From Escherichia coli (GTDB lineage Bacteria > Pseudomonadota > Gammaproteobacteria > Enterobacterales > Enterobacteriaceae): a DNA stretch of 64,000 bases. A program made the translations under genes and the position numbers. The notes under the pieces are model-generated. The model worked only from the letters and a program-made list of their open reading frames with translations. It had not been told where the DNA came from and ran no database searches. Location: assembly GCF_017348835.2 (NCBI RefSeq), contig NZ_CP071375.1; one strand, written 5' to 3'. Numbering within the stretch: the stretch's first letter is position 1; each line of letters starts with the position of its first letter. Below are positions 11,305-33,441 of this stretch, piece after piece.

Positions 11305-12588
11305 TTACAGACTTCTGGAAGGTTGCGCAGCTCTTACAACACGCGGTTGATCTTCCGCGGCGTCTTCCAGCGCACTTAAATCACGGTCTTTCACTTCTGG
11401 CATTTTCAGCGCAGAGATTAAACCAATCACTGAATATGCCATGATCATAATGGCGATCGGATACCAGGATTCCGTCATGGTGCAGAAAATACCCGCCAGG
11501 ATAGGACCAAAACCGGAAGCGATAAGACCACCAATTTCTTTAGAAATAGCCATCCGGGTAAAGCGGTTTTTACAGCCGAACATTTCTGCCATGGTAATGT
11601 TTTCCAGAGCAAATAATCCCAGCACCGCACAGTTATGAATCACAATCAGTGCAACCATAATGGTGCTCGGGGCATAGCTTTTATCTACGATGATAGAAAG
11701 CATTGGCCATGCCAGCACAATCGCAGAGGTATTCATAATAATATACGGGATCCGGCGACCAATTTTATCGGATAACCAACCAAGGAACGGAATGGTCATA
11801 AAGCCGAGAATCGAACTGATCATCAATGCATCTGTTGGAATTGCTTTGTTAAACAATAACGTCTGTACTAAATAGCCTGCAAGGAAAGTCTGAATTAAAC
11901 CGGAGTTACCCGCCTGACCAAAACGCAGCCCTGTTGCCAGCCAGAAGGATTTGCTCTGGAACATGCTACCAGCAGGTGCAGGTTTTGCTGTCGGTTGGTT
12001 GCTGTCGTTAACCTTCTCAAAGACCGGGCTTTCTTTCAGATTCATACGCAACCAGATAGCAAAGACCATCACGACAACGCTCGCCAGGAACGGTATACGC
12101 CATCCCCACGCCAGCAGTTCCTCTTTACTGAGAATGAAGAACATAAAGGCCCAGATTGCCGTTGCGCTTAAGGTTCCGCAGTTAGTTCCCATAGCCACAA
12201 ATGAGGAGATAATTCCGCGCTTACCTTTTGGCGCATATTCCGCCAGCATCGTACCGGCACCGGAAATTTCCGCACCCGCACCCAACCCCTGAATAATACG
12301 CAGCGTCACCAGCAAGATGGGGGCAAAAACACCAATCTGTGCATAGGTCGGTAACACTCCAATTAAGGTGGTACAGATCCCCATCATGGTGATGGTAATA
12401 AAGAGCACTTTTTTACGCCCTATTCTGTCGCCCATTTTGCCGAAAATAAATGCTCCGACAATACGCGCCACATAACCTGCACCGCAGGTTCCCATTGCCA
12501 AAATTAACGCCATTGCCGTTGATGATTCAGGAAAAAATATTTCATGAAACACTAACGCAGCGCCGAGCGAATATAACTGGAAATCCAT
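11305..12588 (-). pseudogene. ydfJ: MFS metabolite transporter YdfJ, 5'-truncated by prophage insertion
   Basis: 427 aa ORF starts exactly at the prophage junction; the missing N-terminal 28 codons are at 33292-33374 on the other side of the prophage. Confidence 0.75.
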
Positions 12589-12594
12589 AATTCA
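12580..12594. repeat. Prophage att core copy (gaaatccataattca)
   Basis: Near-identical to 33292-33306; lies at the ydfJ junction. Confidence 0.55.
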
Positions 12595-13374
12595 CAGGTG
12601 TTTTTTCCCATCCTGTGGTTTCCTTGGCGTTTTCTAGGTTTTTTCAGATAGTTGCATTTTTTAAAAAGCATCCTAAGTTCGATCTCAGTGTCTATCTGGG
12701 GCCTATTTCTGTCCCATATATGCCCCAAAAAAAACTCCCCAACAGATAAGTAGTTTTTTCATGGATTTATGCGTAAAATCAAGAACGGCTGGAAATCATT
12801 CAATACTCACACTATCGAAAAATTTACCAGCCAACCGCAGCACGTTCTTGCATAAGGCGTGTCTGCGGTTTTTCAACTATTCAGATACATCACTCCCATC
12901 ACATTCATTCCTCCGCATCAAAGGCATATAGGCTATATCACCTTGATATTTTTATTTTTCAGATAAAAACTGTTATCTATGTATACTTTTAAACCCAATC
13001 CGTGTAGAGTCTCTGCATAAGATAGTTTGCAGTTGCCGCTTCAGCTTGCGCCATAAATCGCCTGATTTTTGCTGCCACCTGTTAGCATTCCTGTATACCT
13101 GAAACGACAATGTTTATCTACGAACTTTAAGAACACCCAAGATAAAAATTGTCAACTATATCATATATAACACATTACTAATTCGAGGCTATATGAACAG
13201 CATACTGATAATCACATCTCTCCTTATCATATTCAGCATTTTTAGTCATGCCCTAATAAAATTAGGGATTGGCATATCCAATAACCCAGACAAAACCGAT
13301 GTATAAGTCAACATATCCTGAATCAGACATACAATATCGCAATGAAAATCAATAATATTTTAAGGAATATCTTC

Positions 13375-13608
13375 ATGAAATCAAAAGACACCCTAAAGTG
13401 GTTCCCTGCGCAGCTTCCTGAAGTAAGAATTATCCTAGGGGATGCTGTAGTGGAAGTAGCAAAACAGGGAAGACCTATCAATACCAGAACATTGCTTGAT
13501 TACATTGAAGGAAACATAAAGAAAAAATCATGGCTGGATAACAAAGAATTATTACAAACAGCGATATCAGTTCTTAAAGACAACCAAAATTTAAATGGTA
13601 AAATGTAA
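13375..13608 (+). CDS. ydfK: Small prophage protein YdfK (77 aa)
   Basis: MKSKDTLKWFPAQLPEVRIILGD...; AT-rich upstream leader. Confidence 0.7.
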   Translation: MKSKDTLKWFPAQLPEVRIILGDAVVEVAKQGRPINTRTLLDYIEGNIKKKSWLDNKELLQTAISVLKDNQNLNGKM

Positions 13609-13924
13609 TATAATAAACTTACTTTTTTATCATTTTTCCACTTTAACAACATTTTGCTCCACTTTTCCACGACCAAACAACTTGAAATCTGGTTAAAATA
13701 ACACGCAACACTATTCTTCTTCCTTGAGTCCGCCCGGAACTCGAAAAACAAACCGAGTTAAAGCCATTTTTCACAAAATCGATTTTGGGTCTCACCAAAA
13801 TTACGGGGTTGCATACGCATTCGTTTATTTTCGAACGTGTACATACAAATATGCACAAAAATAATCAAAATTATTTTCTGAGATGCATTATGATATGAAC
13901 ACCAATTTCGTATAGAGTCTCACT

Positions 13925-14515
13925 ATGTCTCGAATTTTTGCTTACTGTCGGATATCAACGCTGGATCAGACCACCGAAAATCAACGCCGGGAAATCGAAA
14001 GTGCAGGTTTTAAAATCAAACCTCAGCAAATAATCGAAGAACACATTAGCGGCTCAGCAGCAACCAGTGAGCGTCCTGGTTTTAACCGGTTGCTTGCTCG
14101 CCTGAAATGTGGTGATCAATTGATTGTGACAAAACTGGATCGCCTTGGTTGTAATGCAATGGATATCAGGAAAACAGTGGAACAACTGACCGAAACAGGT
14201 ATCAGAGTGCATTGCTTAGCATTGGGGGGCATTGACCTGACCAGTCCAACAGGAAAAATGACGATGCAAGTAATTTCAGCAGTCGCTGAATTTGAACGAG
14301 ACCTTTTACTTGAACGCACTCATTCCGGGATAGTAAGAGCCCGGGGCGCAGGGAAACGTTTTGGTCGACCACCTGTGTTAAATGAAGAACAGAAACAGGT
14401 GGTATTCGAACGAATTAAGTCAGGTGTAAGTATAAGTGCCATTGCCCGGGAATTCAAAACCTCGCGGCAAACCATTTTAAGAGCCAAAGCAAAACTTCAG
14501 ACACCTGACATATAA
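13925..14515 (+). CDS. pinQ: Serine recombinase / DNA invertase Pin
   Basis: 196 aa; resolvase catalytic N-domain and C-terminal HTH. Confidence 0.85.
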
Positions 14516-14612
14516 AAAATAATCTCGGTGTGAGATGCTTTACGTCTTCCAAGCCACCTTCCTTGCCGTAAATGGAAAGATACATCTAATTATAGAATTT
14601 ATATGTTTTACC

Positions 14613-15188
14613 CTACGGCAGTGCTGGCCATTCAATATCCTGTGCAGTTGACGTATCAACACGGTTCAGCAATACCCGATACTTTTTCCATGCTTCCAGC
14701 AACGAGATTTCTTCCTCCGTTGCAATTTCCAGATCTGCAGCATCCTGAAGCGGCGCAATATGCTCACTGGCTACCTGCATCAGGCTGTTTTTTGTTTCTT
14801 CCGCCTCCCGGATCCGGAACAGTTTTTCTGCTTCCGTATCCTTCACCCAGGCTGTGCCGTTCCACTTCTGATATTCCCCTCCCGGCGATAACCAGGTAAC
14901 ATTTTCCGGTAACGGACCGAGTTCAGAAATAAATAACGCGTCGCCGGAAGCCACGTCATAAACCGTTTTACCCCGATGATCTTCAACGAGATGCCACGAT
15001 GCCTCATCACTGTTGAAAACAGCCACGAAGCCTGCCGGAATATCTGGCGGTGCAATATCGATACTGTTTGCTGGCAGACCTGTATGAGGCGGAATATATG
15101 CGTCACCTTCACCAATAAATTCATTAGTTCCGGCCAGCAGATTATAAATTTTTATGGTCCGTGGTTGTTCACTCATTCTGAATGCCAT
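14613..15188 (-). CDS. tfaQ: Tail fibre assembly protein
   Basis: 191 aa; adjacent to tail-fibre C-terminal module. Confidence 0.75.
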
Positions 15189-16741
15189 TATGCAAGCCTC
15201 ACAATATAGTTAAATGCGATGTTTTTGACGGTGTTTTCCGCGTTACCAGCAGCGTTAACGGTGATGGTATGTCCATGTGAACCAATCGCAACGGAGTGCG
15301 TATGAGCACCAATACCGACAGTATGTGCGTGTGCACCTGCGCTTGCAGCAGTACCCGATACAGAGTGCGTATGAGCGCCTGCAGAAGAAGTGTTAACACT
15401 GTATTTAGAGTAATCAGGTGATCCACTTCCCGGAGCACCACTGGAACCACCTGAAACAAATGTCATCGAATGGGTATGTGCACCGGCTGAAGCAGCCGTA
15501 CCGCTAACACTATGGGTATGCGCACCAGTGTTATTCGTGGATTTAGTGCCGTAATCAAACGACGATGTGGTTTTCGTCCCCAAATCCGTACTGGATACGC
15601 TGGCGCTGTGGGTGTGTGATTTAATGCCGTCCTGTTCCTGAGACAATACGGCTCGATCACTGGCGGGCTTGCCCTTAATCGTCCAGCCACGCATATCCCC
15701 TTTCGTTTTCATCCAGTCTTTGACAATCTGCACCCAGGTGGTGAACGGGCTGTACGCTGTCCAGATGTGAAAGGTCACACTGTCAGGTGGCTCAATCTCT
15801 TCACCGGATGACGAAAACCAGAGAATGCCATCACGGGTCCAGATCCCGGTCTTTTCGCAGATATAACGGGCATCAGTAAAGTCCAGCTCCTGCTGGCGGA
15901 TGACGCAGGCATTATGCTCGCAGAGATAAAACACGCTGGAGGGGTCATCCGGCGTCCATTTGAGGCCAAACGGCGTCTCTTTGTCGCCAAATTTAAGATA
16001 CTGCTCCTCCCCGCAGTGCGGGCAGGCAACATGAAAACGCATAAAATGCGGGGATTCACTGGCTGCACGCTCAATCTGGCAGGTGCCTCTCACTTTGGGC
16101 GTGGAGCCACGGATGGACTTTGGCCAGACCGAGCCTTCAATACGTTTGTCGCCAAGGAACGTCGGAGAGCCTTCCTGTTCAATATCCTCATCAAAGGCAG
16201 CAAGTTCATCATAACCCGCCACATCCACCGACTTTTCACGGTAGTTTTTTGCCGCTTTACCGCCCAGGCACCAGAAGCCACGACCATTGGAAAAACGCTT
16301 CATAGTGAGCGTGTTATCCCGGTGCTTTTTGCCATACCACGGAGCCAGCGCCAGCAGCGACGGAATATCGCGGATGGTCGGCTCAACGTGGGTTTTCATA
16401 AAGTTCTCGGCATCACCATCCGTCGGCAACCAGATAAGTGTGTTGCGCTGCTTATGCTCTATAAAGTAGACATAAACACCCAGCAGCATTTTGGAATAAC
16501 CGACACGGGCAGACTTCACCACATTCACCTCACGGATGTAGTCGCTGCCCATCGCATTCATGATGGCCCGCTGAAAGGGCAGTGTTTCCCAGCGCCCTTC
16601 CTGGTATGCGGATTCTTTCGGGAGATAGTAATTAGCATCCGCCCATTCAACGGCGGTCTGTGGCTCCGGCCTGAACAGTGAGCGAAGCCCGGCGCGGACA
16701 AAATGCCGCAGCCTGTTAACCTGACTGTTCGATATATTCAC
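15188..16741 (-). pseudogene. stfQ: Chimeric ORF: lambda gpA-like large terminase N-terminal region fused in frame to side-tail-fibre C-terminus
   Basis: N-terminal ~345 aa match lambda gpA from memory; C-terminus has GAHTHS repeats typical of lambda Stf; morphogenesis genes in between are absent. Confidence 0.75.
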
Positions 16742-17261
16742 TCAGCAACCCCGGTATCAGTTCATCCAGCGCGGCTGCTTTGTTCATGGCTTTGATGATA
16801 TCCCGTTTCAGGAAATCAACATGTCGGTTTTCCAGTTCCGGAAAACGCCGCTGCACCGACAGGGGGATCCCGTCGAGAATACTGGCAATTTCACCTGCGA
16901 TCCGCGACAGCACGAAAGTACAGAATGCGGTTTCCACCACTTCAGCGGAGTCTCTGGCATTTTTCAGTTCCTGTGCGTCGGCCTGCGCACGCGTAAGTCG
17001 ATGGCGTTCGTACTCAATAGTCCCTGGCTGGAGATCTGTCTCGCTGGCCTGCCGCAGTTCTTCAACTTCCCGGCGCAGCTTTTCGTTCTCAATTTCAGCA
17101 TCCCTTTCGGCATACCATCTTATAACGGCGGCAGAGTCATAAAGCACCTCATTACCCTTGCCACCGCCTCGCAGAACGGGCATTCCCTGTTCCTGCCAGT
17201 TCTGAATGGTACGGATACTCGCACCGAAAATGTCAGCCAGCTGCTTTTTGTTGACTTCCAT
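16716..17261 (-). CDS. nohA: Small terminase subunit, Nu1 homologue
   Basis: 181 aa, [29 protein letters not shown]...; lambda-type cos immediately upstream. Confidence 0.85.
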
Positions 17262-17438
17262 TGTTCATTCCACGGACAAAAACAGAGAAAGGAAACGACA
17301 GAGGCCAAAAAGCCCGTTTTCAGCACCTGTCGTTTCCTTTCTTTTCAGAGGGTATTTTAAATAAAAACATTAAGTTATGACGAAGAAGAACGGAAACGCC
17401 TTAAACCGGAAAATTTTCATAAATAGCGAAAACCCGCG

Positions 17439-17450
17439 AGGTCGCCGCCC
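17439..17450 (-). other. Lambda-type cosN cohesive-end sequence (GGGCGGCGACCT on minus strand) with lambda right-end-like flank
   Basis: Exact 12-mer; flanks resemble lambda left and right ends as recalled. Confidence 0.75.
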
Positions 17451-17649
17451 CGTAACCTGTCGGATCACCGGAAAGGACCCGTAAAGTGATAATGATTATC
17501 ATCTACATATCACAACGTGCGTGGAGGCCATCAAACCACGTCAAATAATCAATTATGACGCAGGTATCGTATTAATTGATCTGCATCAACTTAACGTAAA
17601 AACAACTTCAGACAATACAAATCAGCGACACTGAATACAGGGCAACCTC

Positions 17650-17844
17650 ATGTCAACGAAGAACAGAACCCGCAGAACAACAACCCGCAACATCCGCTTT
17701 CCTAACCAAATGATTGAACAAATTAACATCGCTCTTGATCAAAAAGGGTCCGGGAATTTCTCAGCCTGGGTCATTGAAGCCTGCCGCCGGAGACTAACGT
17801 CAGAAAAGAGAGCATATACATCAATCCAGAGTGATGATGGATGA
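17650..17844 (+). CDS. Small prophage protein (YnfO-like position)
   Basis: 64 aa ORF; function unknown. Confidence 0.4.
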   Translation: MSTKNRTRRTTTRNIRFPNQMIEQINIALDQKGSGNFSAWVIEACRRRLTSEKRAYTSIQSDDG

Positions 17845-18094
17845 ACATCCCGGTTTCTTTACCTTCCCTCCCTCCCCGCACAGAACTGGCGAGCGTGAGG
17901 GACCAATATGTGAGCCATAAATGCCTTATCTTCAGAAATGCAGTTGGTATCCGAACAGGACGATATTGTAAATTCACCTAAATACGAGGCATTGCTGTAG
18001 TTGAATTGCAGTACTGTATTAGCCTGACAGTGACAGAATACGATATTGACTCTGTCACTTGTGAAATGGTCAGAATGGTTAGCAGTTATGGTGA

Positions 18095-18301
18095 TCAGTC
18101 AACCAACAGGGAATAATCCTTCGTATTCTTATCGTGCTTTACTAACGCGGCCTCAATTGCCCTGAATGCTTCCAGAGATACTTGATGTTCTATACATGCA
18201 ATTACAACATCCGGGTAACCCATCGAAATGGTGCTATTAAGCATAGTTTTTACACGAACCTGCTCCTGGGAGGGGGCATCAATGTATTGATCTTTATGCA
18301 T
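18095..18301 (-). CDS. Hypothetical prophage protein
   Basis: 68 aa ORF only. Confidence 0.3.
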
Positions 18302-18596
18302 TTTGTCGCTCCATTCGTTTGCTCTTCACTTGCGGCTAAAAATATAACGTCAAATCACTCAGCATGAAAGAGTGAAAGTTTCAGCGCGTTTCCCTTACAT
18401 AATCTGTCGTTTGTATTCTCTTCAGGCATACCGGAAAGACTAGGTATTGTCACACAACCAATACCATCGACAATCGAGATTTATATCTATTCGGTAATGT
18501 TTAAATATAACAAAACCCCGTAAAAACGAGGTTTATGGGTAATTTGTATTGTTGAATAGCATCTGATGAGAAATTGATGCTAATACTATAAACATG

Positions 18597-18770
18597 CTAG
18601 ATTAAATCAATCTTGATATCATAGCTTTCAAGACCAGTCATTTTTTCCCGTGCAGTAAACTGGATACTGGTAACTTCTTTCCCGGTCTTTTTCTTAAGCT
18701 CAATGATTTTTTTTGTTATATATTCAGAAATATCTGCTTCTGTTTTTGTTTTTAACTCTTCAATGTTCAT
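18597..18770 (-). CDS. gnsB: GnsA/GnsB-family small protein (57 aa)
   Basis: MNIEELKTKTEADISEYITKKIIELKKKTGKEV...; start at the internal Met of the 88 aa ORF. Confidence 0.7.
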   Translation of the reverse strand: MNIEELKTKTEADISEYITKKIIELKKKTGKEVTSIQFTAREKMTGLESYDIKIDLI

Positions 18771-18942
18771 CATTTCCTCTTTTAGTCTGTTATGACTGTC
18801 CTGGTACACAGTAGTGTCAATTATATGGAGCAAACGTATAAAAGATAAGATGAAACATCGCAATAATCAACATACGACGGTCTAAATTTCACACAAACAG
18901 ATAAAAATGATTATCATTTATTATCAATGCATTAGAATCAAA

Positions 18943-19212
18943 TCAATTCAAGAGTCTCATTGCTGCTTCCAGAATTTCTTCTGAAGTTACATGTCGATCC
19001 GCTGCTACATAAATGACTTTATGATCTCCGGTCAGAGATGGAAACCCTGCAGCCATTACAGTGAGGTGTGTTGTTTCGCCATTTGGATATTCACGCATGA
19101 TGGTGTTAACTCCGGTCATCACTGGCACTACCATTGCTGGTTCAGAGTTAAAAAAAACTATTATTTTTTTCATAATGTTACCGTAATATGTGAGTATCCA
19201 TCGACTAGACAC
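18943..19212 (-). CDS. Small prophage protein (YnfN-like position)
   Basis: ORF only; true start may be an internal Met. Confidence 0.4.
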   Translation of the reverse strand: MSSRWILTYYGNIMKKIIVFFNSEPAMVVPVMTGVNTIMREYPNGETTHLTVMAAGFPSLTGDHKVIYVAADRHVTSEEILEAAMRLLN

Positions 19213-19444
19213 TAAGCAAAAAAGCTCCCGAAGGAGCCTTCATTTTCACTTTCTTAAATCTAACGACAGATGGCTAACATTTAAGTATTGTGAAATATTA
19301 TCAAATGTAATCATCATTGATTTACAAAAGATACATTTTGCCCCGAAAGGATTTCTGTCAGAAACATCAAAAGATGATGTTCTATACTGAGAACCATGGC
19401 AACACGGGCATCTAAAGTGAATATGGTTTGTAATATTTTCTACC

Positions 19445-19657
19445 TCAAAGTGCCACTACATGAACAGCTGCAGGGCCTTTAGGTCCGTTCTCAATACCAA
19501 ATTCGACTTCCTGATTCTCAGTTAACGTTTTGAAATCGTTGCTCTGAATAGCTGAGAAATGCACAAACACATCTTTGCTACCATCTTTCGGCGTGATGAA
19601 ACCAAAACCTTTTTCAGGGTTAAACCATTTCACTAAACCAGTCATTTTGTTAGACAT
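19445..19657 (-). CDS. cspI: Cold-shock protein CspI
   Basis: 70 aa CSD protein ([21 protein letters not shown]...); long AT-rich leader. Confidence 0.85.
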
Positions 19658-20020
19658 CATTATTACCTTTTGAAGAAGTTAGCCCTTGGGCAGAATGGTC
19701 CGAAAAAAAATATCAGAGAGAAAAACCAACAAGGAAATCTCAAGAGGTACAAATAATAAAATTATAACAATGACTGCTTCAGATAATTTTGTAACAAACC
19801 AGAACACCATTAACGCATGATTAACCAACCATAGCAAGGATTACTTTTGTAAAGAAAAACACACGAATGAAACAATAGCTTTATTTATTAATAAAACGTG
19901 TCATTCTGTCTAATGACCTTTTATCTTACCCTTAAGATTTCAAGGATTTTGACTCATGGAAGAGTCCTTTTTATTTAAATTTCACATTCAGCGCTAAAAA
20001 TAATCCGATTTAATATTAAT

Positions 20021-21050
<1,030 letters not shown>

Positions 21051-21371
21051 GGATATTTATCAGGATTTATCGGCTTCAAATCCCCGGATATGTTAAATCT
21101 TACCTCACCAGTGATGGGCACTGGCGGGAGGAGGATGTCAATCTGATAAACACAGAGGTGACTATGGATTACACAAATCTACCAAAACAAACTTTTGCTG
21201 ATTTAATCGCACTCAGGCAAGCAGTCGTAGCTCTAATCAACTTGTTGCCGGAGAAGGAAAAGGAATTAGTTAAAGCGCTTCTTAACAGAACTGCCGCCGA
21301 TTTTTCATCATATCCACTGACAGATGACCTTGCGGACCTTCCTGAATTAATTGCAGCGTCCGCCATTAAGC

Positions 21372-21923
21372 TTACTGAAGAGATTTACCCTCCTCAAAAA
21401 TCTTCACAAAATTCCTGCGAGTAACTTCAATGCAATAATCGTAAAACGCCGCAAACTGCTCATCGCGGCGTTTTTTTTCATCTTCAGAAGGAATCAGCAC
21501 CGACAATTTTTTATTCAGATCAGCGACGCTGCCCTCCAGTTTTTCAATGGGCGATTCAATATCATCTTTTTCTGACCGCAATGCCGTCGGTGGCGTCTTC
21601 AGAGAACCAGTAATTCTTCCCGGTAGCTTTCCTTTGTAGGTTATCCACACATTCTGCGCCTCTAAAATTATGGGGCGCTTTTCCGGCGACTGCTCATCCC
21701 CTTCACATAACCCGGCAGCAACATCCAGGAAGACCTGTCTGATGCTCATTCTGGCTGCTGCCTCATAAAACTCCAGCGCGGCACCTTCAACACGGTCCAG
21801 CGAGATGTCCAGGTCAAAAATTTCACCGTCAAAGCGTTCTTTGTCCTGTAATGCTAAAGTTACCGTAACTTTATTCTCAAAATTGCGGATCCCTTTCACA
21901 ATCAGTTCATAGTTTTGAGTCAT
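21372..21923 (-). CDS. Prophage protein between holin and lysozyme (YdfR position; possibly DUF1327-like)
   Basis: 183 aa ORF; family assignment from memory only. Confidence 0.45.
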   Translation of the reverse strand: MTQNYELIVKGIRNFENKVTVTLALQDKERFDGEIFDLDISLDRVEGAALEFYEAAARMSIRQVFLDVAAGLCEGDEQSPEKRPIILEAQNVWITYKGKLPGRITGSLKTPPTALRSEKDDIESPIEKLEGSVADLNKKLSVLIPSEDEKKRRDEQFAAFYDYCIEVTRRNFVKIFEEGKSLQ

Positions 21924-21927
21924 TGAA

Positions 21928-22143
21928 TTACTCTCCTCTCGCAGCCTTACGCCTGTCTTCTTTAATCTTGAAATAAAGATTTGTCAGATACGTCAGCAGG
22001 CCAAAAACCAGGCTACCCAGCACACCGATTGCAGCCCACTGTGACGGAGTTACTTTATCGAGTAACTGCAATGCCCAGAAACCAGCATTACCCGCCGATG
22101 TGCCATAGGCAACACCTGTTGTTAACTTATCCATTGATTTCAT
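21928..22143 (-). CDS. essQ: Holin
   Basis: 71 aa from MKSMDKL with TM segments; upstream of the lysozyme gene. Confidence 0.7.
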
Positions 22144-22363
22144 ATCCTCACCCCGATGTACACGGATGGTGCAATATGTTTGAAAAGATCGGAGTCTACG
22201 GGGTAGTTTTGACAGCACACGTTGTTCTCAACGGCGCTAAAGAAACATACACATTAAAAATGTGAGTAATTATTTTTTAAAGAAAGTCATATATAAAATA
22301 ATAATACGAGAAATGTTTTCATATTTAGTGTACTGTATACGGCCATTTATACAGGAAAAGCCT

Positions 22364-22534
22364 ATGTCAGAACGTAAAGACTCAAAATCACGCCGTAATT
22401 ATCTCGTTAAATGTTCCTGCCCAAACTGCACCCAAGAGTCAGAACACAGTTTTTCAAGAGTACAAAAAGGTGCCCTTTTGATCTGCCCTCATTGCAACAA
22501 AGTATTCCAGACAAATCTTAAAGCTGTAGCCTGA
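22364..22534 (+). CDS. Small zinc-ribbon protein (CxxC...CxxC)
   Basis: CPNCTQ...CPHCNK motifs; start uncertain. Confidence 0.35.
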   Translation: MSERKDSKSRRNYLVKCSCPNCTQESEHSFSRVQKGALLICPHCNKVFQTNLKAVA

Positions 22535-22597
22535 TTGATTTTATTAGTAACAAGTATTTTTTATATTTTAATAATATATTTAAAGCAGATAATAAAA

Positions 22598-22615
22598 AAC
22601 CCGCCTGAGCGGGTT
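22598..22615. terminator. Bidirectional hairpin terminator (aacccgc ctga gcgggtt)
   Basis: Flanked by an A-run on plus and therefore a U-run on minus; downstream of cspB. Confidence 0.55.
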
Positions 22616-22897
22616 TGAGATTGTGGTGCTTTTTGTGGGAGTCATCCACTTACGCACTTTGTTTTGCCATGCCAGCAGTTAGCTTCTGCTGTAAAACTAT
22701 TCATGCAGCAAACCTGCACTTCACCACAATGGTTAGCATACTTTTCCTGATTAAGATTTTGCCAAATATGCTGGCCATTGTTTCATGTATTGGACCTCCT
22801 TAATTTTCATTAAAGAGATCCAATATTCACTACTCTGTCCGTATCTCTACTCAGGCATCAGCCTTCTTCGTTATCGTATACAGACGAGCGATGAATT

Positions 22898-23110
22898 TTA
22901 ATCAGTAATGATGACATTTGCTGCTGCAGGACCTTTAGCACCACTCTCTATAGAGAAGGTAACCTTTTGACCTTCAAATAAGGTTCGATAATTATCATTC
23001 TGAATCGCAGAAAAATGCACAAACACATCTTTACTACCATCAACAGGAGAAATAAAGCCGAAACCTTTATCAGCGTTAAACCATTTTACTAAACCAGTCA
23101 TTTTATTTGA
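22898..23110 (-). CDS. cspB: Cold-shock protein CspB
   Basis: [23 protein letters not shown]... CSD protein. Confidence 0.85.
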
Positions 23111-23433
23111 CATTCTACATTCCTTAACTTGAGCCTTTCGGCATAAATGGTTTGCATAACAGAAACGACTTCGTACTTAATTGGAGAGACTCAAAGAAGG
23201 AATAAGTGAATAACACCTGAAATGAGAACTGCTTTAGTAAACTACTTCGTATATCGTCTGTTCTTCAAACCGACGCAGTCATTAACTCATAGTTGAACAT
23301 ATGAAGCAATGTTTATTTTAGACATCCAGCCACCTTCAACCCTATCAAAAAAGTAGTTTTCTCCAGGAACGTGTGTATGGTGCACCAGGTTATCAGTATT
23401 AAGGAGTTTTTCTGTCCCCTAAAATGACAGGAA

Positions 23434-23650
23434 TTGTCAAAAACTTTGACTACAAAAGCAGCAAAGGTCTTATATTCCCATCCGATGGCGTATCGATGCC
23501 CAGCTTCACGTTTCAGCTCTCAATCTTCGAGATGCAGAAGAAATTACCACAGGATTACGCGTGGAATTTTGCCGGATAAATGGTTCGCGTGGACCTTCAA
23601 CTGCCAATGTTTATCCCGGGATGAGATTCAATATCTCTATTGCCCCATTT
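23434..23650 (+). pseudogene. cspF: CspF/CspH-like cold-shock gene remnant (frameshifted)
   Basis: N-terminus [22 protein letters not shown], then CSD C-terminus ([19 protein letters not shown]) in another frame. Confidence 0.6.
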
Positions 23651-23656
23651 AAAGCA

Positions 23657-23692
23657 CAAAAACCCGCTTATAAGCGGGTTTTCTACTTTTTT
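23657..23692. terminator. Bidirectional terminator (aaacccgcttataagcgggttt)
   Basis: Palindromic hairpin with T-runs on both strands, between the cspF remnant and quuQ. Confidence 0.6.
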
Positions 23693-23788
23693 CTAAACGT
23701 CGGATACACAAAGCCCATCGTTGAGAAAATCTTATCCATGTTTTTTGAAAAATGCAAACATCATGTCGCCATCTTCAGCAAAAATCAT

Positions 23789-24493
23789 TTATCTCGTCAC
23801 CTTCCTCAATTGCGCTTCCGCGTATGCTTCTTCCTGCCAGCACTTTGTTACCAGTTTACCAATGACGTCAGCATACCCCTTATACCACTGATAATCGGTC
23901 AGGTCTGGTACCAGCTTCTGGACATGACGTCGTGCCAGCGTGGTCGGTAAACGACTAAACCGGTTTCCATTACAACGCCCACAAATCTTATATACCGGTA
24001 CGCCATGAAACCGGGTTCTTTTTTCATCCAGAACAATCCCTTTACCCTTACACCCTCTGCACGCTGTGCTGACTTCGCCCTTACCATGGCAATGCTGACA
24101 TAGTTCCTTTACCCATTCTTCCTTGATTACAGATTCCCCGCGTCTGTAGTGTTTCACCACTTCGCGCAATACATTATAAAATCCCGTACCTGAACAATGC
24201 TCACAGCGAGCCTTACTTGCCGCAGACCTAGAGTAATCAGCAAAGGCAAAATTCACGAGGTAAGGAATAATCTGTAACCGGATTTCTTCACTCAATTTGT
24301 TCAATGTCGGGTTATCCAGTGCCATCGCGTAATTTAGCAGGCCTTCAATCGCAAACTGAGGGTCCTGAACACCAACTTTTGCCAGAAATAAGGCCAACCC
24401 AAGTGGTGCTTTCGACTGCACCATCCCCTGCGCTGCCATTACATCCGTAATTGTTAAACAACCGGTGCCTGTCGCTGGAGCGTCATCGCTCAA
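23789..24493 (-). CDS. quuQ: Q-like late-gene antiterminator
   Basis: 234 aa with Cys-rich zinc-finger region (CEHCSGTG...CQHCHGKG...CRGCKGKG). Confidence 0.75.
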
Positions 24494-24555
24494 TTTTGGA
24501 GATTTTGGGGAGTTGAACCGCCCCGGGTTTCCTGGAGAGTGTTTTATCTGTGAAC

Positions 24556-25443
24556 TCAGGCTGCCAGATCATTATTTCCGATGGAAGCATAATAAGCTTT
24601 TTCTGCTTCTGCCGGAGGAATATGGCCCAGCCTTTCCAGCAATCGTCGATTGTTATACCAGTCCACCCACGTTAGTGTGGCCAGTTCCACTTCTGTCCGG
24701 TTTTTCCAGCTCTTACGGTGTATTACCTCCGCTTTGTAAAGACCATTGATGCTCTCAGCCATCGCGTTGTCATACGAGTCGCCAGTACTCCCTGTTGATG
24801 CCAGTAATCCGGCTTCCTTAAGCCGCTGCGTGTAGGCCAGCGATACATACTGAGAACCTTTATCACTGTGATGGATTGTGCCGGACGGCCGACGGGCCCA
24901 CAACGCCTGCTCCAGTGCATCCAGCACGAATGTTGTTTCCATGGATGATGAGACCTGCCATCCCACGATGTATCCGGCGAACACATCAATGATGAACGCC
25001 ACATAAACGAAGCCCTGCCATGTGCTTACCCAGGTAAAATCAGCCACCCACAACTGGTCTGGACGTTCTGCCACGAACTGACGGTTTACGCGGTCGCATG
25101 CGGCAACGGCTTTCCGGCTGACGGTAGTGCGGACCTTTTTACCCCGGAGAACACCGGCAAGTCCCATAACTGCCATGAGACGTGCCACAGTGCATCTGGC
25201 CACTCTGATACCTTCCCGTAACAACTGACGCCAGACTTTACGCACACCGTATACCTGGTGATTTTCATCGTATACGCGCTGTATCTCTTTCTTCAGCCAG
25301 TCATCGTGCTGCGCACGGGCACTGCGTTTATCCGGATGATGTCGCTGTTGCTGACAATGGTAATACGTTGACGGGGCAATATGCAGTTCGCTGCATACCG
25401 GTCCGACCCCGTACTGCTCACGCAGCTTATCCAGCAGTGGCAT
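24556..25443 (-). CDS. IS3-family transposase OrfB (DDE catalytic domain)
   Basis: 295 aa integrase-core ORF. Confidence 0.85.
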   Translation of the reverse strand: MPLLDKLREQYGVGPVCSELHIAPSTYYHCQQQRHHPDKRSARAQHDDWLKKEIQRVYDENHQVYGVRKVWRQLLREGIRVARCTVARLMAVMGLAGVLRGKKVRTTVSRKAVAACDRVNRQFVAERPDQLWVADFTWVSTWQGFVYVAFIIDVFAGYIVGWQVSSSMETTFVLDALEQALWARRPSGTIHHSDKGSQYVSLAYTQRLKEAGLLASTGSTGDSYDNAMAESINGLYKAEVIHRKSWKNRTEVELATLTWVDWYNNRRLLERLGHIPPAEAEKAYYASIGNNDLAA

Positions 25444-25769
25444 TATTTTTTCCAGAGGCGGTCGAACTCCGCCTTCGCAAAATAAGCGGAAGCCTGGCGA
25501 AGGATATCGTTACTGCGGCGCAGTTCACGATTTTCACGTTCCAGCTCTTTCAGACGCTGACGTTCAGCGGTGGTGAGTCCACCATCACCACTCCCGGTAT
25601 CCCGCTCATGCTGGCGAACCCAGACACGCAGAGTCTCCGGCGTACAGCCAATCTTTGGGGCAATGGAACAAATTGCCGCCCACTGTGAGTCATATTCATC
25701 CTGACTTTCCAGAACCATACGAATCGCCCGCTGACGGACTTCGGGGGAAAAACGAGTATTTTTAGTCAT
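25443..25769 (-). CDS. IS3-family transposase OrfA (HTH + leucine zipper)
   Basis: 108 aa, [33 protein letters not shown]... Confidence 0.85.
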
Positions 25770-25874
25770 CCTGTTTACCTCTTTCTCAGGGAGTTTAGTC
25801 TCCAGGATTTCCGGGGCGGTTCATTAAAGATTTTTTTGTGCATGCCGATAGTGCTTTTTTAAAAGGAGAAATCT

Positions 25875-26207
25875 ATGTCTGTCACAATTCAGGGAAATAC
25901 CTCAACCGTTATTTCAAACAACTCCGCCCCGGAAGGAACATCAGAAATAGCCAAAATCACAAGACAAATTCAGGTGCTGACTGAAAAGCTTGGGAAAATC
26001 TCATCGGAAGAGGGGATGACGACACAGCAGAAAAAAGAAATGGCTGCATTGGTACAGAAGCAAATTGAAAGCCTCAGGGCTCAACTGGAGCAGTTGTTAA
26101 GGCAGCAGGCAGAGAAAAAGAATGAAGACGCGACAGTTCAGCCTGATAAAAAAGAAGAGAAAAAAGACGATACAAATACCGCTGGCACCATTGATATTTA
26201 CGTCTAA
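25875..26207 (+). CDS. flxA: FlxA-like protein (110 aa)
   Basis: Length and coiled-coil-like sequence; Qin context. Confidence 0.6.
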   Translation: MSVTIQGNTSTVISNNSAPEGTSEIAKITRQIQVLTEKLGKISSEEGMTTQQKKEMAALVQKQIESLRAQLEQLLRQQAEKKNEDATVQPDKKEEKKDDTNTAGTIDIYV

Positions 26208-26221
26208 GTGACAGCCGTATT

Positions 26222-26244
26222 GTGGCCCTCATCGGGCCACTTTT
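26222..26244 (+). terminator. Rho-independent terminator after flxA
   Basis: gtggccc tcatc gggccac followed by TTTT. Confidence 0.65.
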
Positions 26245-26643
26245 CGCCATCAGCCTTTTCTTTAAAGACATATTATCTTTGTATCATTTCTGATAGTTAA
26301 CATTACAAGATATAAGTAATGGACGCACTCCCAATTAGTCTATTTAAATCGCCACGAGTTTAACTGACAACCCATGATCAATTATGAATTGCAACTATTT
26401 CTGTAGTCACTTTTGTGGGGACAGTCCACAAAACTGCCAACTTCCGCTTCTTGCTCTTAGCGGACATTAGCATAGGCTATTTACCATAACGCCTCATTAC
26501 GCGCACCGCCCAGACTGACTCAGCGCGTTTCTGGCATATCCCCGGTAAAACAAGTAACAAACCACCCGAAAATGAACACCAGAAACGCGACTTAAGAATC
26601 TACCCTATGAATGGATATGCACTCAACCGAATCGATCTTGGTT

Positions 26644-27985
26644 TCAATCTTTTTTATCGGGATCAGGCTTCTTTTTAGGTAACTTCGGGGGCTTAACTTG
26701 CTGATGACTTTGCGTTCGGCGCGTAAGCCAGGGATGGTCAGCTTTAGGTTTAACATAGTATTTTGAGCGTAAATCAATACGGGCATTATCCACTCGTTCA
26801 TGGACACTCTTTTCATCATCCAGTGGTATAGGCTCCGGGCCATCAACATACTTTTCCCAGCCCAGCGCTTTCCCGTCATACAGAACGTTAATTTCACCGT
26901 CAAAGTTCTCGCATACAGTAACAACCGAATGCCTAAGTCGATATCCCCGGCCCTCACTGCGTACCTGAAACGCACTGCTTTTGTACTGGAAAGTGAGATT
27001 TTTAGACAGAACGCGCTTCGCCTGTAGGCTGAAGATATAACCCAGTTCCTCTTCAGAATGGTGCACATCAAGATGAGCATTATCAGTAGTACGAGGCGAC
27101 GTAGCGAACCGGTTGTTATAGGCTTCAATAAAGGTCGGCAACCATGCATTTGCTGTTTCAATATCACTGATATTCTGAAGCCGCATTTCTTTGACCAGCC
27201 TGTCCTGTAGTGTCTGATTGGCGCGCTCTACCCGCCCTTTTGCCTGCGGGCTGTTGGCATGGATTGGCTCGATGCCCAGTGTCTTTATCGCACGAGTGAA
27301 CTGGGTCAGCTCACCTTCCCGCTCTGGGTTATTTACCCTGAATATACTGTGTCTATCAGAGTAGAGAGCGAGCGGTACGCCATGATCATTAAGGTAACCC
27401 CGGAGGGTTTCCATGTAAGCCCGGGTTGTTTCAGCAGGCACAAAACGCAACGCCATCAACGCACTGGTGGCATCATCAATGAAAACGATCAGTGTACATC
27501 TGGGGCCTCGATTTTCAAACCAGTCATGAGGTGAGCCATCAATCTGGATCAGTTCACCGTAAGATGGTCGTCGCATGCGGCGTTGATATATACGGGCAAT
27601 TTTACGACGGCGTTCACGCCATACCCCCCTCTTCTATCATCCACTTTCTGAGAGTTTCAACGGATAAAGATAAACCGTGTATCTCGCGCAATTTTTCGCA
27701 CGCAAACGTAGGTCCAAAATCAGCGTAACGGCCTTTGAGGAGTGAAATTACTGTTGCTCTGAATTCAGTAGAAAAGGAATTATTAGGACGCTTTCCACGT
27801 CGGTGGGAAACCAGACCAGAAGGCCCTTCATTTCTATACCGTTGCACCAGACGTTTAACCTGCCGAATAGAAATGCCAATGCGTGCCGCAGCTTGTTCCT
27901 GAGTAATATGTCGATTAATTGACTCCTGAATAATCTGAAGTCGGTGGAGTTCCTTATGACTCATCGTAACAGTTTCTTTGGTCAT
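26644..27985 (-). pseudogene. DDE transposase (integrase-core; IS481/ISNCY-like) split by a frameshift
   Basis: N-terminal HTH part 27614-27985 and catalytic part 26644-27576 are in different frames; junction at a C6/G6 run around 27624-27629. Confidence 0.65.
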
Positions 27986-29651
27986 GAAAAATCCCCCAGA
28001 GAATTGTCTGGGGACATTTTAGAATGGTTCAAAGGGGACATTACAGCTTGGTGTTAACAATAGCCTGCTTCTCCTTGCCTTTCGGCACGTAAGAGGCTAA
28101 CCTACATGTGTCTGGCATGAAATTGGCCTCAGATTAATGTTAAGCGTCTTGCAGGACGCGTAATGTTAACTGGGGCTTTTCTCTACCTGCCGTTGGTGTT
28201 CGTGCCCGAGGCAGATAGCCTCAAGCACCCGCAGTCATTCTACTTAACTAAGATTTCCCCGCAAACCGTTTTTGTCCAGCACAGTAAATATCCAACTAAA
28301 CCAATGGAGTTCGCTGTATTTACCGCCAGTATTCAATGCACATGACCGCCATGAACACCCCTAAAAAAAGGGCATTTATATATCCAAATATTAATATCAA
28401 AACATCAACTTTTTCCATATACCTTGCTGTGAAGATGATGGGCATACATGATGCGAACAACCAGAACGCAACAAACAAAAACTGCAATGCGTTTTTCATT
28501 ATTCCTCCTACAATCAATGTGCAATTACATTTAAACACACCTCAATTTGGCCGGACATATAAATATCTAAACCAGAAAAAATCACTTACATAGCGTTACA
28601 AACTCTTTAGTCTAAAGGTTCATCGTAAAACATTCCCCATACTTATCAGTCCGTTCCGCGCCAGGTAGCTCATTGCCTTATCTGGCAACCTGTAATCAGG
28701 TTTCCGCTTTTTCAGTTGGCTGGTCGTTTAACCGACATAGTTAACCCATTAATCTAGTTGCCGGATGTTGGTGGATTTTCGCGTTTTAGTTGTTCATAAA
28801 AGTGCACAGCTTTAACCAATTCTTCTGATGTAACCGGGACTGGTGAGGCAGTGAATAAGGCCTGAATTTGATAGTTCGGCCTGTCGTTACAATCCTCTTT
28901 TTTCGGTACATATTTCCAGTCACCAGACCACTACTTCCCCTGAAAGTCCGTAACGCCTTTTTTCACGTAGCGATATCGCCATGTCACTGGTTTTGCTTGC
29001 CCCGCCGTTTCATGCCCTTCCTGATAATTAATCTCGCTCATTCATCGCCCCACTCATCACAATATGCTTCGACCGGAGTTTTTCCCGCTTCATAGTCATC
29101 ACGCTAGGATTCGACATCAGCAGCACTTCCACCGCGTAACTCACCATAGTCCATTAATAGTTCATCCCGCTCTTCAAAACTGATGTTATATTTAGCTGAA
29201 CAAAAATCAGCCACTTTGTTCTTCCTCATCGTCTTTTATTTCGTGGTATGAGTAATTGCAGTAGTTAAAGAAAATTTCTTATGCTCCGTCATGAATTTCA
29301 TCAGGTGTTGCGTCATCGTCCACTTCGAATACATCCTCAAAATCTCCACCAGCTATTCCCGTTTCAATAATAATTTTGAACTTTCGCATTTCACTACCGC
29401 CCTTTCGGGCGGCCTCCTGATGTTCTGAGGGTGCAGAAATCCATCCGGTTAAGGATTAAGTTTTATTTACAGAACTGAATTTAATTATTCAGATATACGT
29501 ATCTGTAACCTTACGAATCTACTCACTGGATGCCTCTTTCATAAAAATAATCCAGTGGGTTTTATCGTTTTTTCCCTGTTCGTTGACAGATAACAGGCTT
29601 TCTATCTGTCAGTGCCAGAATCTGGCTTACCGGTATTTGCGTTTCATTCCA

Positions 29652-30008
29652 TTAAAAAATCAGAACGCCGTGCGGCCTCAACACCCGAAAAGCTTCTTTA
29701 AATCTCTGTCGCAAATCATCACGCCAGGCATCTTTATTCAGCCGTCCATATTTCTTTCCCATCCAGGCGTTATCACCAACACGCTCAAGATGCGGAGGGT
29801 CTAATACAACCATCGAAAAAGATGCGTCTGCAAATGATAATGCACGAAAATCTGCGATAATGTCAGGGCTGATAATCAAGCGTCTCCCATTGCGTAATGT
29901 GTATCCTTCTTTTCTGATATCGCTAAATATCGCCCGTTCGTCAGACTTATCGAACCAGAACATGCGGCTGCCACAGCACATATCAAGAATGGTTGCCGGT
30001 GCACTCAC
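29652..30008 (-). CDS. DNA methyltransferase fragment (DPPH-type motif)
   Basis: 118 aa with VVLDPPHL motif; short for a complete MTase. Confidence 0.45.
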   Translation of the reverse strand: MSAPATILDMCCGSRMFWFDKSDERAIFSDIRKEGYTLRNGRRLIISPDIIADFRALSFADASFSMVVLDPPHLERVGDNAWMGKKYGRLNKDAWRDDLRQRFKEAFRVLRPHGVLIF

Positions 30009-30535
30009 TGCGCCACGTCCTGAAAATTACCCTGATAGAAAGCCAGTATGCGCTGCATAACTTCGCTCTTCCGGCACTCGCGACAGATTATGTTTAGGCG
30101 ACTGTCGTAGCGACGTATTTCTCCGTCAGGTGATGACCAGATAAGGTCCGGATCAACCACAGCAGGTTTCTTCACCTTTGCCCTCGAGAGTTTTTTGCGG
30201 GCGTTTTGCCAGTCCTTACGCGCCTGTTCAGAGGGGAATAACCCGTATCTGATATCCCAAAAAATGAAACCGCACCGGAAGCTGAACCATCTGTAGAGCG
30301 TGAGGGGCCGTTCTATTTCCTCTTCGCAGATAAGGACGGAGAAAAATACGGTCGCGCAAACAAACTTTCTGGTCTGGATAAGGCACTGGCTGCTGGCGCC
30401 ACTGAAATCACAAAAGAAGAATATTTTGCCCGAAAAAATGGCACATACACGGGCTTACCGCAAAATGTAGATACCGCTGAAGATTCAGAACAACCAGAGC
30501 CGATAAAAGTTACCGCTGACGAAGTAAACAAAATT

Positions 30536-31615: not shown

Positions 31616-31687
31616 TGTTCAACTGTCGCCGGTTGTGACTGGTATTCTGCAACCGGCGCTCGTCTGATGTAAGAGATAAAGAAATCG

Positions 31688-31939
31688 ATGAGCGAAGTAA
31701 TCATGATTGTCTCTCCCGGCAAATGGGTATCCGAAGAGCAGTTAATTGCGCTGAAAGGAATAAAAAAAGGTACGTTAAAAAAGGCCCGGGAAAAATCGTT
31801 TATGGAAGGAAGGGAATATAAGCATGTCGCTCATGACGGTATGCCATGGGATAACAGTCCATGCTTTTACAACCTGGAAGAAATTGATCGCTGGATTGAG
31901 CGCCAGGCATCAGCAAGACCAAGACGTCATCTTACTTGA
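31688..31939 (+). CDS. Excisionase-like protein
   Basis: 83 aa basic ORF immediately upstream of the integrase. Confidence 0.55.
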   Translation: MSEVIMIVSPGKWVSEEQLIALKGIKKGTLKKAREKSFMEGREYKHVAHDGMPWDNSPCFYNLEEIDRWIERQASARPRRHLT

Positions 31940-31958
31940 CTAAAAGCCACACTAACTA

Positions 31959-33254: not shown

Positions 33255-33291
33255 TTTAATATTTATCAAATAGTTGACACGTATGACTCTT

Positions 33292-33306
33292 GAAATCCAT
33301 AAATTC
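33292..33306. repeat. Prophage att core copy (gaaatccataaattc)
   Basis: Direct repeat of 12580-12594. Confidence 0.55.
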
Positions 33307-33374: not shown

Positions 33375-33441
33375 CTATTGTCATAATGGTTATCTCTAAA
33401 AAAGAGGTAAGATGCGTACTACTTACTCGCAGTTATTGGTA

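Follow-up and report, generated by a model that had tools for sequence, protein, structure and literature searches.

In the Qin cryptic prophage of Escherichia coli K-12, the gene order pinQ, tfaQ, fusion ORF, nohA, cos includes an in-frame gpA'-'stf fusion, StfQ (b1547), next to NohA (b1548). Other terminase-A remnants of K-12 are YmfN (oweE'-aaaE') of prophage e14, annotated as "chimeric replication protein/phage terminase", and the pseudogenes aaaD and aaaE, all of which were made chimeric or truncated by deletions in cryptic lambdoid prophages. A further kind of fusion is represented by StfE2 and StfP2, the chimeric tail-fibre ORFs that arise in e14 from PinQ inversion (PMC12529663). Here we describe a chimeric ORF of 517 aa (15188..16741, minus strand, GTG start) in a 64,000-nt stretch of E. 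coli DNA, hereafter the window. The chimera occupies the same locus as StfQ, in the same gene order, and both end at the same stf stop. However, StfQ keeps gpA codons 1-3 only (VNI/TALTDN..., slashes marking joins) followed by a Stf piece of 317 aa, whereas the chimera combines gpA residues 1-349 with 168 aa of Stf. In addition, the NohA of K-12 has 189 aa with an altered C-terminus, compared to the intact NohA of 181 aa in the window. The fusion partners and breakpoints of YmfN and aaaD/aaaE are unlike those of the chimera. Similar to StfE2 and StfP2, the chimera is a tail-fibre fusion in a cryptic prophage, with the same strain background and the same recombinase family; nevertheless, the former are products of a reversible site-specific inversion at pix sites, whereas the junction of the chimera has no pix site and marks a deletion, which cannot be reversed, at 4 bp of microhomology.

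The window shares 99.97% identity with E. coli PE164 (NZ_CP114128), the annotation of which provided the coordinates of the prophage. Qin, inserted in ydfJ, spans 12580..33400, with approximate boundaries at the truncated ydfJ on the left and at the integrase/excisionase genes adjoining rspB on the right. The ydfJ insertion and the gene order ynfT-ydfK-pinQ-tfaQ-(stf)-nohA-...-gnsB-cspI-rzpQ agree with the annotations of PE164 and K-12, the latter giving "cryptic prophage Qin" at the same position. The neighbours of the chimera are pinQ, tfaQ, nohA, a ynfO-like gene, gnsB and cspI. Among them, pinQ (13925..14515, plus strand), also annotated in PE164, encodes an intact serine DNA invertase of 196 aa (phrog_125, E 5.3e-68), and tfaQ (14613..15188, minus strand) encodes a tail fibre assembly chaperone of 191 aa (phrog_105, E 4.2e-98), with 94% DNA identity to the lambda tfa region in blastn. 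On the opposite side, nohA (16716..17261, minus strand) encodes a full-length Nu1 homologue, the terminase small subunit, of 181 aa (phrog_57, E 5.5e-77), the C-terminus of which (...SEYIEQSG) resembles that of lambda, in contrast to the altered end of K-12 NohA. Upstream of nohA, a lambda-type cos (17262..17480, minus strand) was located by reading the sequence and comparing it with lambda. Its cosN, GGGCGGCGACCT at 17450-17439, is identical to that of lambda and is followed, on the way to nohA, by the cosB stretch. Together, cosN and cosB differ from lambda nt 1-190 by one mismatch and one gap (98.9% identity), and a cosQ-like GGGTCCT is present at 17480-17474. As judged from the sequence, the elements of the lambda cos packaging site (cosN, cosB with R sites and I1, and cosQ) appear to be present.

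The 5' part of the chimera (residues 1-349; 15694..16741, minus strand) was assigned to gpA by PHROGs, Pfam and blastn against lambda. The terminase large subunit profile phrog_15 covers residues 1-349 (E 3.6e-195), which are colinear with lambda gpA at ~99% protein and ~98% DNA identity (98.4% to lambda 711-1758 in blastn), and this identity ends at residue 349 of 641. Like lambda gpA (PF05876 and PF20454), the chimera has a GTG start overlapping nu1, a Walker A motif (KSARVGYS, residue 76) and an ATPase domain (GpA_ATPase, residues 47-285, E 2.3e-50 in Pfam), with YDELAAF at residue 177; the Nu1-binding N-terminus and the ATPase domain both lie within its 5' part. In contrast, only ~28 residues are left of the GpA_nuclease domain (PF20454), namely residues 322-349, matching model positions 2-33 of 294 (E 0.005). 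The C-terminal endonuclease domain and the portal-binding end of gpA are absent, according to both Pfam and the lambda alignment.

The 3' part (residues 350-517 to the stop; 15188..15697, minus strand) was assigned to Stf by phrog_295, phrog_2097 and phrog_8239 and by blastn against lambda. Residues 349-517 match the C-terminus of the tail fibre profile phrog_295 (E 1.6e-89), and Pfam gave weak Phage_fiber repeat matches 3' of the nuclease remnant. The tip contains five G-A-H-x-H repeats, namely GAHTHS at residues 406, 420, 455 and 478 and GAHAHT at residue 469, plus a sixth variant, GSHGHT, at residue 487. Compared with lambda Stf (orf-401/orf-314) and Tfa, the chimera shares the histidine-rich C-terminal receptor-binding tip with its G-x-H-x-H repeats, followed by the tfa chaperone gene, the start of which overlaps the stop of the chimera. 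However, it lacks ~600 residues at the N-terminus, through which the fibre is anchored on the virion: the attachment and shaft region is missing, and the Stf part begins only at lambda nt 21368, codon 114 of orf-314.

In three-way alignments with both parents, gpA and stf, taken from lambda, strain K_EC180 or L003, the deletion junction of the window falls at 15694..15697 (minus strand), where four base pairs, GATA on the coding strand, are common to gpA (GGGGATACGG) and stf (CCTGATATGCG). Both flanks are colinear with their parents up to GATA, with no filler DNA. The join leads in frame from gpA codon 349 to codon 114 of orf-314 and cuts Stf in the Collar-domain region, at PD/MRGW. In blastn, window 17450-15694 corresponds to lambda 1-1758 (98.4%), window 15697-15542 to lambda 21368-21523 (88%) and window 15337-14623 to lambda 21824-22538 (94%); the last two blocks, separated by an unaligned stretch, make the middle of the Stf tip a mosaic that differs from lambda. 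In lambda coordinates, 19,613 bp are absent, from W through lom and including the 5' two thirds of stf. An assembly artefact was ruled out because the junction is found in two independent complete genomes, and also because any assembly k-mer would be far longer than the overlaps.

These results bear out every testable element of what a first-pass annotation had claimed from the DNA alone, namely the extent of the 517-aa ORF, its gpA and Stf parentage with GAHTHS repeats, the retention of a Nu1 homologue and a lambda-type cos upstream, the in-frame join and the loss of about 20 kb of head and tail genes. It had put the gpA part at ~345 aa, which is corrected here to 349 aa. The alignment to lambda gpA and Stf that it had named beforehand as the check places the breakpoint at gpA codon 349, with a gpA-like N-terminal and a Stf-like C-terminal part.

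We propose that the ORF is, very probably, a fossil deletion junction in the Qin cryptic prophage, made by illegitimate recombination at a microhomology, either in a single step or in more than one. Codon 349 of a lambda-type gene A would have been joined, via the 4-bp GATA, to stf at a point 168 codons ahead of its stop. The DNA lost between the endpoints would have comprised the gpA nuclease domain, W, the portal, protease/scaffold, D, E, FI and FII genes, all tail genes, lom and the 5' part of stf. The reading frame would have been kept at the join by chance, and therefore a 517-aa ORF would have resulted that runs from the gene A start to the native stf stop, the latter overlapping the start of tfaQ. 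Since gpA has lost its nuclease and portal-binding parts, and Stf the N-terminal part by which it attaches, the product is expected to have no selected function, and the established functions of the gpA domains indicate that it should be able neither to cut cos nor to dock on the prohead. One random deletion in three falls in frame, so a join in frame is no sign of function. We regard the chimera as a rare allele of a known type of prophage decay, probably non-functional.

Deletion scars of this kind are ordinary, and the two breakpoints of the chimera recur in many other E. coli strains. The exact junction of the window is present in two of 5,426 complete E. coli genomes, and the K-12-type junction in at most 375. 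In other strains, deletion alleles with different breakpoints, and with microhomologies of 0-8 bp, are numerous in the nohA-tfa interval (K-12, L003-L005, L007-L011), and dozens more fusions of the gpA N-terminus, to Stf, Tfa, J, H, E, portal, K and C, exist among public proteins. A DLP12 allele with a codon-350 end was found in 11 genomes only; aaaD in DLP12 of K-12 is a 309-nt pseudogene and therefore ends far short of codon 349. Scans for the exact pattern of the gpA breakpoint found three and one IMG/VR contigs, and no JGI metagenome contig. Literature searches on stfQ/nohA and on microhomology in defective prophages brought up no account of the breakpoints of the chimera.

Among the 120 best matches listed from public E. 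coli proteins, gpA D349/T350 is joined to ~25-30 distinct partners, and further gpA junctions cluster at 389, 489-496 and 519. On the other side, public E. coli proteins show Stf /MRGW behind at least five different upstream partners, including left ends at gpA 449, 489, 504 and 519. The hot spot in gene A, GGGGATACGG, corresponds to codons 349-350, and its junctions span nt 1755-1760; that in stf is GA/TATGCGTGG (/MRGW), at the site GATATGCG. Most hot-spot junctions have the palindromic dinucleotide TA in common. Both endpoints are thus non-random, which counts against a junction made by chance microhomology alone; a further factor, mutational or selective, would be at work.

The re-use of endpoints also bears on the number of steps. 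A single deletion, as suggested in the first-pass annotation, fits the clean junction; against it, the endpoints occur in other alleles and the flank haplotypes have different nearest relatives, the left flank being closest to the L007 allele lineage (99.4%) and the right flank to L003/L019/L011 (99.8-99.9%). An origin in several steps, in which a second, small in-frame deletion arose from an older fusion already holding one endpoint, instead of one 19.6-kb event, has in our estimate a nearly even chance. Candidate parents are gpA(1-519)/MRGW, of 687 aa, via a 510-bp deletion between GGATA repeats, and gpA(1-350)/TTDANW..., of 601 aa. The first is consistent with the known alleles that combine the right end of the window with the other left ends given above, one of which (P0003/L023, gpA(1-519)/MRGW) carries the same 168-aa "ASDRAV" tail type, and P0332 shows that a 510-bp deletion from gpA 349 to 520 between GGATAC repeats does occur. 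The second is in line with the existence of alleles that have the left end of the window, the 601-aa L007 among them with the closest left flank. Multi-junction alleles are known at the Qin locus as well (L005, and the P0107 allele in L019). However, the L023 haplotype differs from the window (97.9% left, 99.0% right), no allele identical to the window in both flanks was found, and the junction itself bears no trace of an earlier event. Direct descent from the P0003 allele is unsupported, the haplotypes being different.

Whether reached in one step or several, the fossil junction has endpoints that may be hot spots of prophage decay, used repeatedly and with nucleotide precision, which we consider possible but doubtful. 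A possible cause of such hot spots is the action of terminase, or of some other nuclease, on cos-like TACGG(G) sequences. In the corresponding explanation, which seems to us unlikely, deletions begin where lambda-type gene A, at ...GGGGATACG^GG, and a small number of further sites are nicked or broken sequence-specifically, so that an enzyme and not chance sets the endpoint; one speculative candidate for the enzyme is terminase, acting on sequences that resemble the cosN/cosQ half-site TTACGGG. Consistent with this, gpA 349-351 has its many partners beside the clusters at 389, 489-496 and 519 among the matches listed, and hot-spot junctions show 0-5 bp of microhomology compared to 6-7 bp in several one-off junctions. 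Moreover, a gpA lineage of 66% identity has no hot spot at the corresponding residue, where its DNA differs (0 of ~10 junctions). In lambda 1755-2636, TACGG is present at three places, all of them beside a junction cluster (P = 0.003 weighted by events and 0.07 for unique endpoints, for a motif chosen post hoc). However, the motif was picked after the data had been seen, the right-hand hot spots /MRGW, /TALTDN and /IAPPD do not have it, and the 389 cluster is also found in the divergent gpA lineage although the DNA differs there. The junctions, in addition, were sampled from the 120 best protein matches, which are not a census. A hairpin or cruciform at the hot spots found no support, with DNA folding z-scores of -1.7 to +0.9. 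The idea that the hot spots are homology edges between paralogous copies was likewise unsupported; /MRGW lies inside blocks that align with stf of lambda and K_EC180 and shows no e14 homology, the DLP12 allele with the codon-350 end is confined to 11 genomes, and aaaD of K-12 does not reach codon 349.

The sequence of the gene A hot spot is GGGGATACGGG, and its counterpart in phage PhiR12_1 is of the AAAGATCCCAAC type.

It is highly improbable that the fusion has been domesticated, with selection keeping either the in-frame protein or a cos-nohA-gpA' module, as a decoy that poisons the terminase of incoming lambda-like phages or as a receptor-blocking fibre fragment. In-frame alleles are frequent, making up six of the ten DNA-level alleles examined at Qin/DLP12, but this excess over the expected one third is not significant (binomial p about 0.08) in a sample that is weak and not unbiased, and out-of-frame alleles are found at the same breakpoint. 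The StfE2 fragment from a cryptic prophage, made chimeric by PinQ inversion, reportedly blocks T2 adsorption (PMC12529663), yet the fibre tip of the chimera has no signal peptide or export route. Although nohA, cos, tfaQ and pinQ are all intact, K-12 and many other strains keep only three gpA codons, and an allele present in two of 5,426 genomes is rare.

The idea that PinQ made the deletion, by recombining a crossover site of stf with a quasi-site of gene A, has next to no chance of being correct. PinQ is active in K-12 (PMC12529663), its gene is intact and adjoins the chimera, and most hot-spot junctions share TA; nevertheless, the Pin crossover site, defined from the e14 pix sites with the same repeats as quoted in PMC12529663, is AAACC-TT-GGTTTGGGAGAAGG with a central TT/AA, which neither breakpoint resembles. 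A search for the 26-bp site (AAACC-NN-GGTTT core) gave no match in the window at up to three mismatches, and the loose core AAACCNNGGTTT occurs there only at chance level. With no pix site in the window and unrelated junction sequences, Pin-mediated deletion was ruled out.

Taken alone, the chimera is of little weight, being a rare allele of the well-known decay of Qin; in annotation, it should be labelled a fusion remnant instead of a "terminase large subunit family protein". In Qin/DLP12-type prophages, the nohA-tfa interval, in turn, has naturally accumulated dozens of independent deletion junctions that re-use endpoints, a data set that could serve to study site choice in illegitimate recombination and whether prophage domestication favours in-frame remnants. 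If the re-use reflects sequence-specific breakage or recombination, instead of shared ancestry, sequential nibbling or selection, the loss of the morphogenetic region from lambdoid prophages would be partly directed, by a mechanism that could be tested.

A minus-strand ORF with a GTG start, 15188..16741, encodes 517 aa (ORF listing). PHROGs assigned residues 1-349 to the terminase large subunit (phrog_15, E 3.6e-195) and residues 349-517 to a tail fibre protein (phrog_295, E 1.6e-89), in agreement with the first-pass annotation of a 517-aa product that begins like lambda gpA and ends like the side-tail-fibre protein Stf with GAHTHS repeats; its gpA part, put there at ~345 aa, measures 349 by both PHROGs and blastn. 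The gpA ATPase domain occupies residues 47-285 (Pfam, E 2.3e-50) with the Walker A motif KSARVGYS at residue 76, and the nuclease domain is reduced to its first ~28 residues, followed by weak Phage_fiber repeats (Pfam). The fibre part carries four GAHTHS motifs, at residues 406, 420, 455 and 478, in addition to the variant repeats GAHAHT at 469 and GSHGHT at 487.

Using blastn, window 17450-15694 was aligned to lambda 1-1758 (98.4%), 15697-15542 to lambda 21368-21523 (88%) and 15337-14623 to lambda 21824-22538 (94%). Four bases (15694-15697) are common to the two alignments that meet at the junction; three-way alignments with gpA and stf of lambda, K_EC180 and LZYWN_4 read them as GATA, present in both parents (gpA AAAGGGGATACGGG, stf CCCTGATATGCGTGG). 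As had been proposed, the join is in frame, leading from gpA codon 349 (GAT, Asp) to codon 114 of lambda orf-314 (ATG CGT GGC TGG, MRGW). The proposed loss of about 20 kb of head and tail genes amounts to 19,613 bp in lambda coordinates, covering the rest of A, W, B, C/Nu3, D, E, FI, FII, Z, U, V, G, T, H, M, L, K, I, J, lom and the 5' part of stf. Neither filler DNA nor an IS element was found at the join. By its sequence, the junction is evidently a microhomology-mediated illegitimate deletion.

The Nu1 homologue and lambda-type cos expected upstream are indeed there: full-length nohA (16716-17261, phrog_57) and cosN GGGCGGCGACCT (17450-17439), the cosN-cosB stretch being 98.9% identical to lambda nt 1-190. 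On the downstream side come tfaQ (14613-15188) and pinQ (13925-14515), which encodes an invertase. The chromosome of the pig E. coli PE164 shares 99.97% identity with the window, and its counterpart region is the Qin cryptic prophage, located in ydfJ, with the gene order ynfT, ydfK, pinQ, tfaQ, chimera, nohA, a YlcI/YnfO-family gene, gnsB, ynfN, cspI and rzpQ. There the chimera is annotated as “phage terminase large subunit family protein”. The sole stretch differing from PE164 is 24513-27107, in which a 1.3-kb segment (24513-25823) adjoining IS3-family and ISEsa1 elements, near a Q-like antiterminator gene, is inverted; this suggests a local, IS-associated rearrangement that separates two very close strains.

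The Qin prophage of K-12 has the same arrangement as PE164, but with stfQ in place of the chimera. In K-12, stfQ (locus L002, 4886-5848; in frame) consists of the gene A start and first three codons (VNI) followed by Stf from TALTDN, and StfQ is thus also an in-frame gpA'-'stf deletion fusion; the deletion that made it altered the C-terminus of NohA (L002, 5799-6368), which has 189 aa compared to 181 aa in the window. In-frame alleles were also found in LZYWN_4 (L003; gpA and W, then a portal'-'stf fusion), CREC-532 (L007; gpA 350 joined to stf, 601 aa, 8-bp microhomology GGGATACG), TOK-001 (L010; gpA 519 joined to MRGW, 703 aa) and Isolate 12 (L011; a 1030-aa fusion). Out of frame are those of K_EC180 (L004; gpA up to lambda nt 2197 plus 1.8 kb of stf), EC26 (L005; gpA 1944, E 6683-7316, then stf, with two junctions), DLI.5a (L008; gpA up to lambda nt 1894, then stf) and FORC_081 (L009; DLP12 locus, gpA 350 joined to stf). 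Altogether, at least 10 different deletion alleles were read at the DNA level in the nohA-tfa interval of Qin/DLP12 (L002-L011, L015-L020 and L023), where two-junction alleles such as gpA-E'...FI-stf occur.

As a single piece, a 300-bp query spanning the junction finds only two matches among 5,426 complete genomes, the pig isolates PE164 and F2_81, and the protein cluster of the chimera has 10 members. At most 375 genomes carry the K-12-type junction, at most 60 the 601-aa type, and 11 the FORC_081 type. From the allele series and these counts, the Qin interval is therefore hypervariable through deletions, with the window allele as one rare member. The left flank of the window is closest to CREC-532 (99.4%), and the right flank to L003, L019 and L011 (99.8-99.9%); the L023 allele, which joins gpA(1-519) to MRGW, shares 97.9% on the left and 99.0% on the right. 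The flanks have been shuffled by recombination, which is compatible with both a one-step and a multi-step origin.

Both endpoints of the chimera recur. Its stf endpoint is common to TOK-001 and its gpA endpoint lies within 2 nt of those of CREC-532 and FORC_081, while K-12 and LZYWN_4 share another stf endpoint. We searched the chimera against 5.8 billion proteins and examined the best 120 matches, locating the departure from lambda gpA in each and opening two 90% clusters. The 120 matches comprise dozens of distinct fusions of the gpA N-terminus with Stf, Tfa, J, H, E, portal, K or C. Among the matches and cluster members listed, gpA D349/T350 (lambda nt 1755-1760) has roughly 25-30 distinct continuations, including the out-of-frame DTFCP*, DKHGAV..*, DICSV..*, DIWIF..* and DIFSP..*, and lesser clusters sit at residues 389 (7 partners), 489-496 (7) and 519 (5); matches whose gpA part reaches residue 349 or beyond score equally on gpA, so that the ranking gives 349 no advantage over later sites, though it may favour the chimera's own gpA lineage. 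One further D349/T350 partner came from an IMG/VR contig and three from a later search. On the right side, again among the matches listed, MRGWTIKG follows gpA 349, 449, 489, 504 and 519, TALTDNTQ follows gpA 3, 411 and 486 as well as portal, and IAPPD of Tfa follows gpA 349 and 547. With lambda as proxy parent, hot-spot junctions have 0-5 bp of microhomology, mostly with TA or GATA, and several one-off junctions have 6-7 bp. These alleles are not confined to a single prophage: P0065 and P0107 lie at Qin, P0082 in another lambdoid prophage. The 471-aa protein P0332 carries an in-frame internal gene A deletion from residue 349 to 520 (KGD, then TAKEQIYNRF), and lambda has GGATAC at both of these hot spots (nt 1754 and 2264).

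Several explanations of this re-use were tested. In the PhiR12_1 gpA lineage, 66% identical to lambda, the DNA at the residue equivalent to 349 is AAAGATCCCAAC, and none of ~10 junctions lies at 349-350, where lambda-lineage matches of the same search fell again; in this small sample, the pattern points to a DNA-sequence cause of the 349 hot spot. Residue 389 has two partners in the PhiR12_1-type lineage as well, which misfits a purely DNA-level cause. The 389 junctions follow ...APV or ...AAV in the two lineages (L006 nt ~1877; L024), whose DNA differs there, in contrast to the 349 hot spot, found in the lambda type only. Lambda 1755-2636 contains three copies of TACGG, a motif chosen post hoc, at the clusters of residues 349, 489-496 and 519 (event-weighted P = 0.003, unique-endpoint P = 0.07). 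The motif resembles the TTACGGG common to cosN and cosQ in the window; it is missing at the right-hand hot spots and is a lead only. Homology edges with paralogous copies are unsupported for MRGW, no significant DNA folding was seen at any hot spot, and no near-universal resident allele ending at codon 349 was found. A deletion made by PinQ was rejected: the Pin crossover site AAACC-TT-GGTTTGGGAGAAGG, recovered from e14, agrees with the reported PinQ site (PMC12529663), and nothing similar lies at the breakpoints, nor does the 64-kb window contain a Pin crossover site (AAACCNNGGTTTGGGAGAAGG) elsewhere. The invertase of the intact pinQ lacks a local substrate here; PinQ is reported to act on the P segment of e14 in trans (PMC12529663, 2025). 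Pin sites, DNA folding and homology edges do not account for the nucleotide-precise re-use of the chimera's two breakpoints.

The sequence-level analyses gave no functional signs for the chimera. It is devoid of the nuclease and portal-binding parts of gpA and of the attachment part of Stf; these defining domains were looked for and are absent, placing it outside the functional gpA and Stf families. K-12 manages without the gpA portion, the same breakpoint is also used by out-of-frame alleles, and the window allele is rare. Six of the 10 alleles read at DNA level keep the frame as far as the stf stop, an excess that is suggestive and not significant (binomial p about 0.08, from a sample that is not unbiased). 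A functional role keeps a small probability, given that StfE2, a chimeric fibre fragment of a cryptic prophage, is reported to have anti-phage activity (PMC12529663) and that infecting lambda is known to recombine with Qin and DLP12 (PMC3945230).

The chimera belongs to the deletion remnants of lambdoid cryptic prophages. Its closest known counterparts are K-12 StfQ/NohA, of the same locus and fusion kind but with different breakpoints, and e14 YmfN of K-12 (L021, 1171-2538; oweE'-aaaE'), named “chimeric replication protein/phage terminase” in RefSeq. YmfN provides an earlier example of a chimeric terminase ORF made by deletion in a cryptic prophage.
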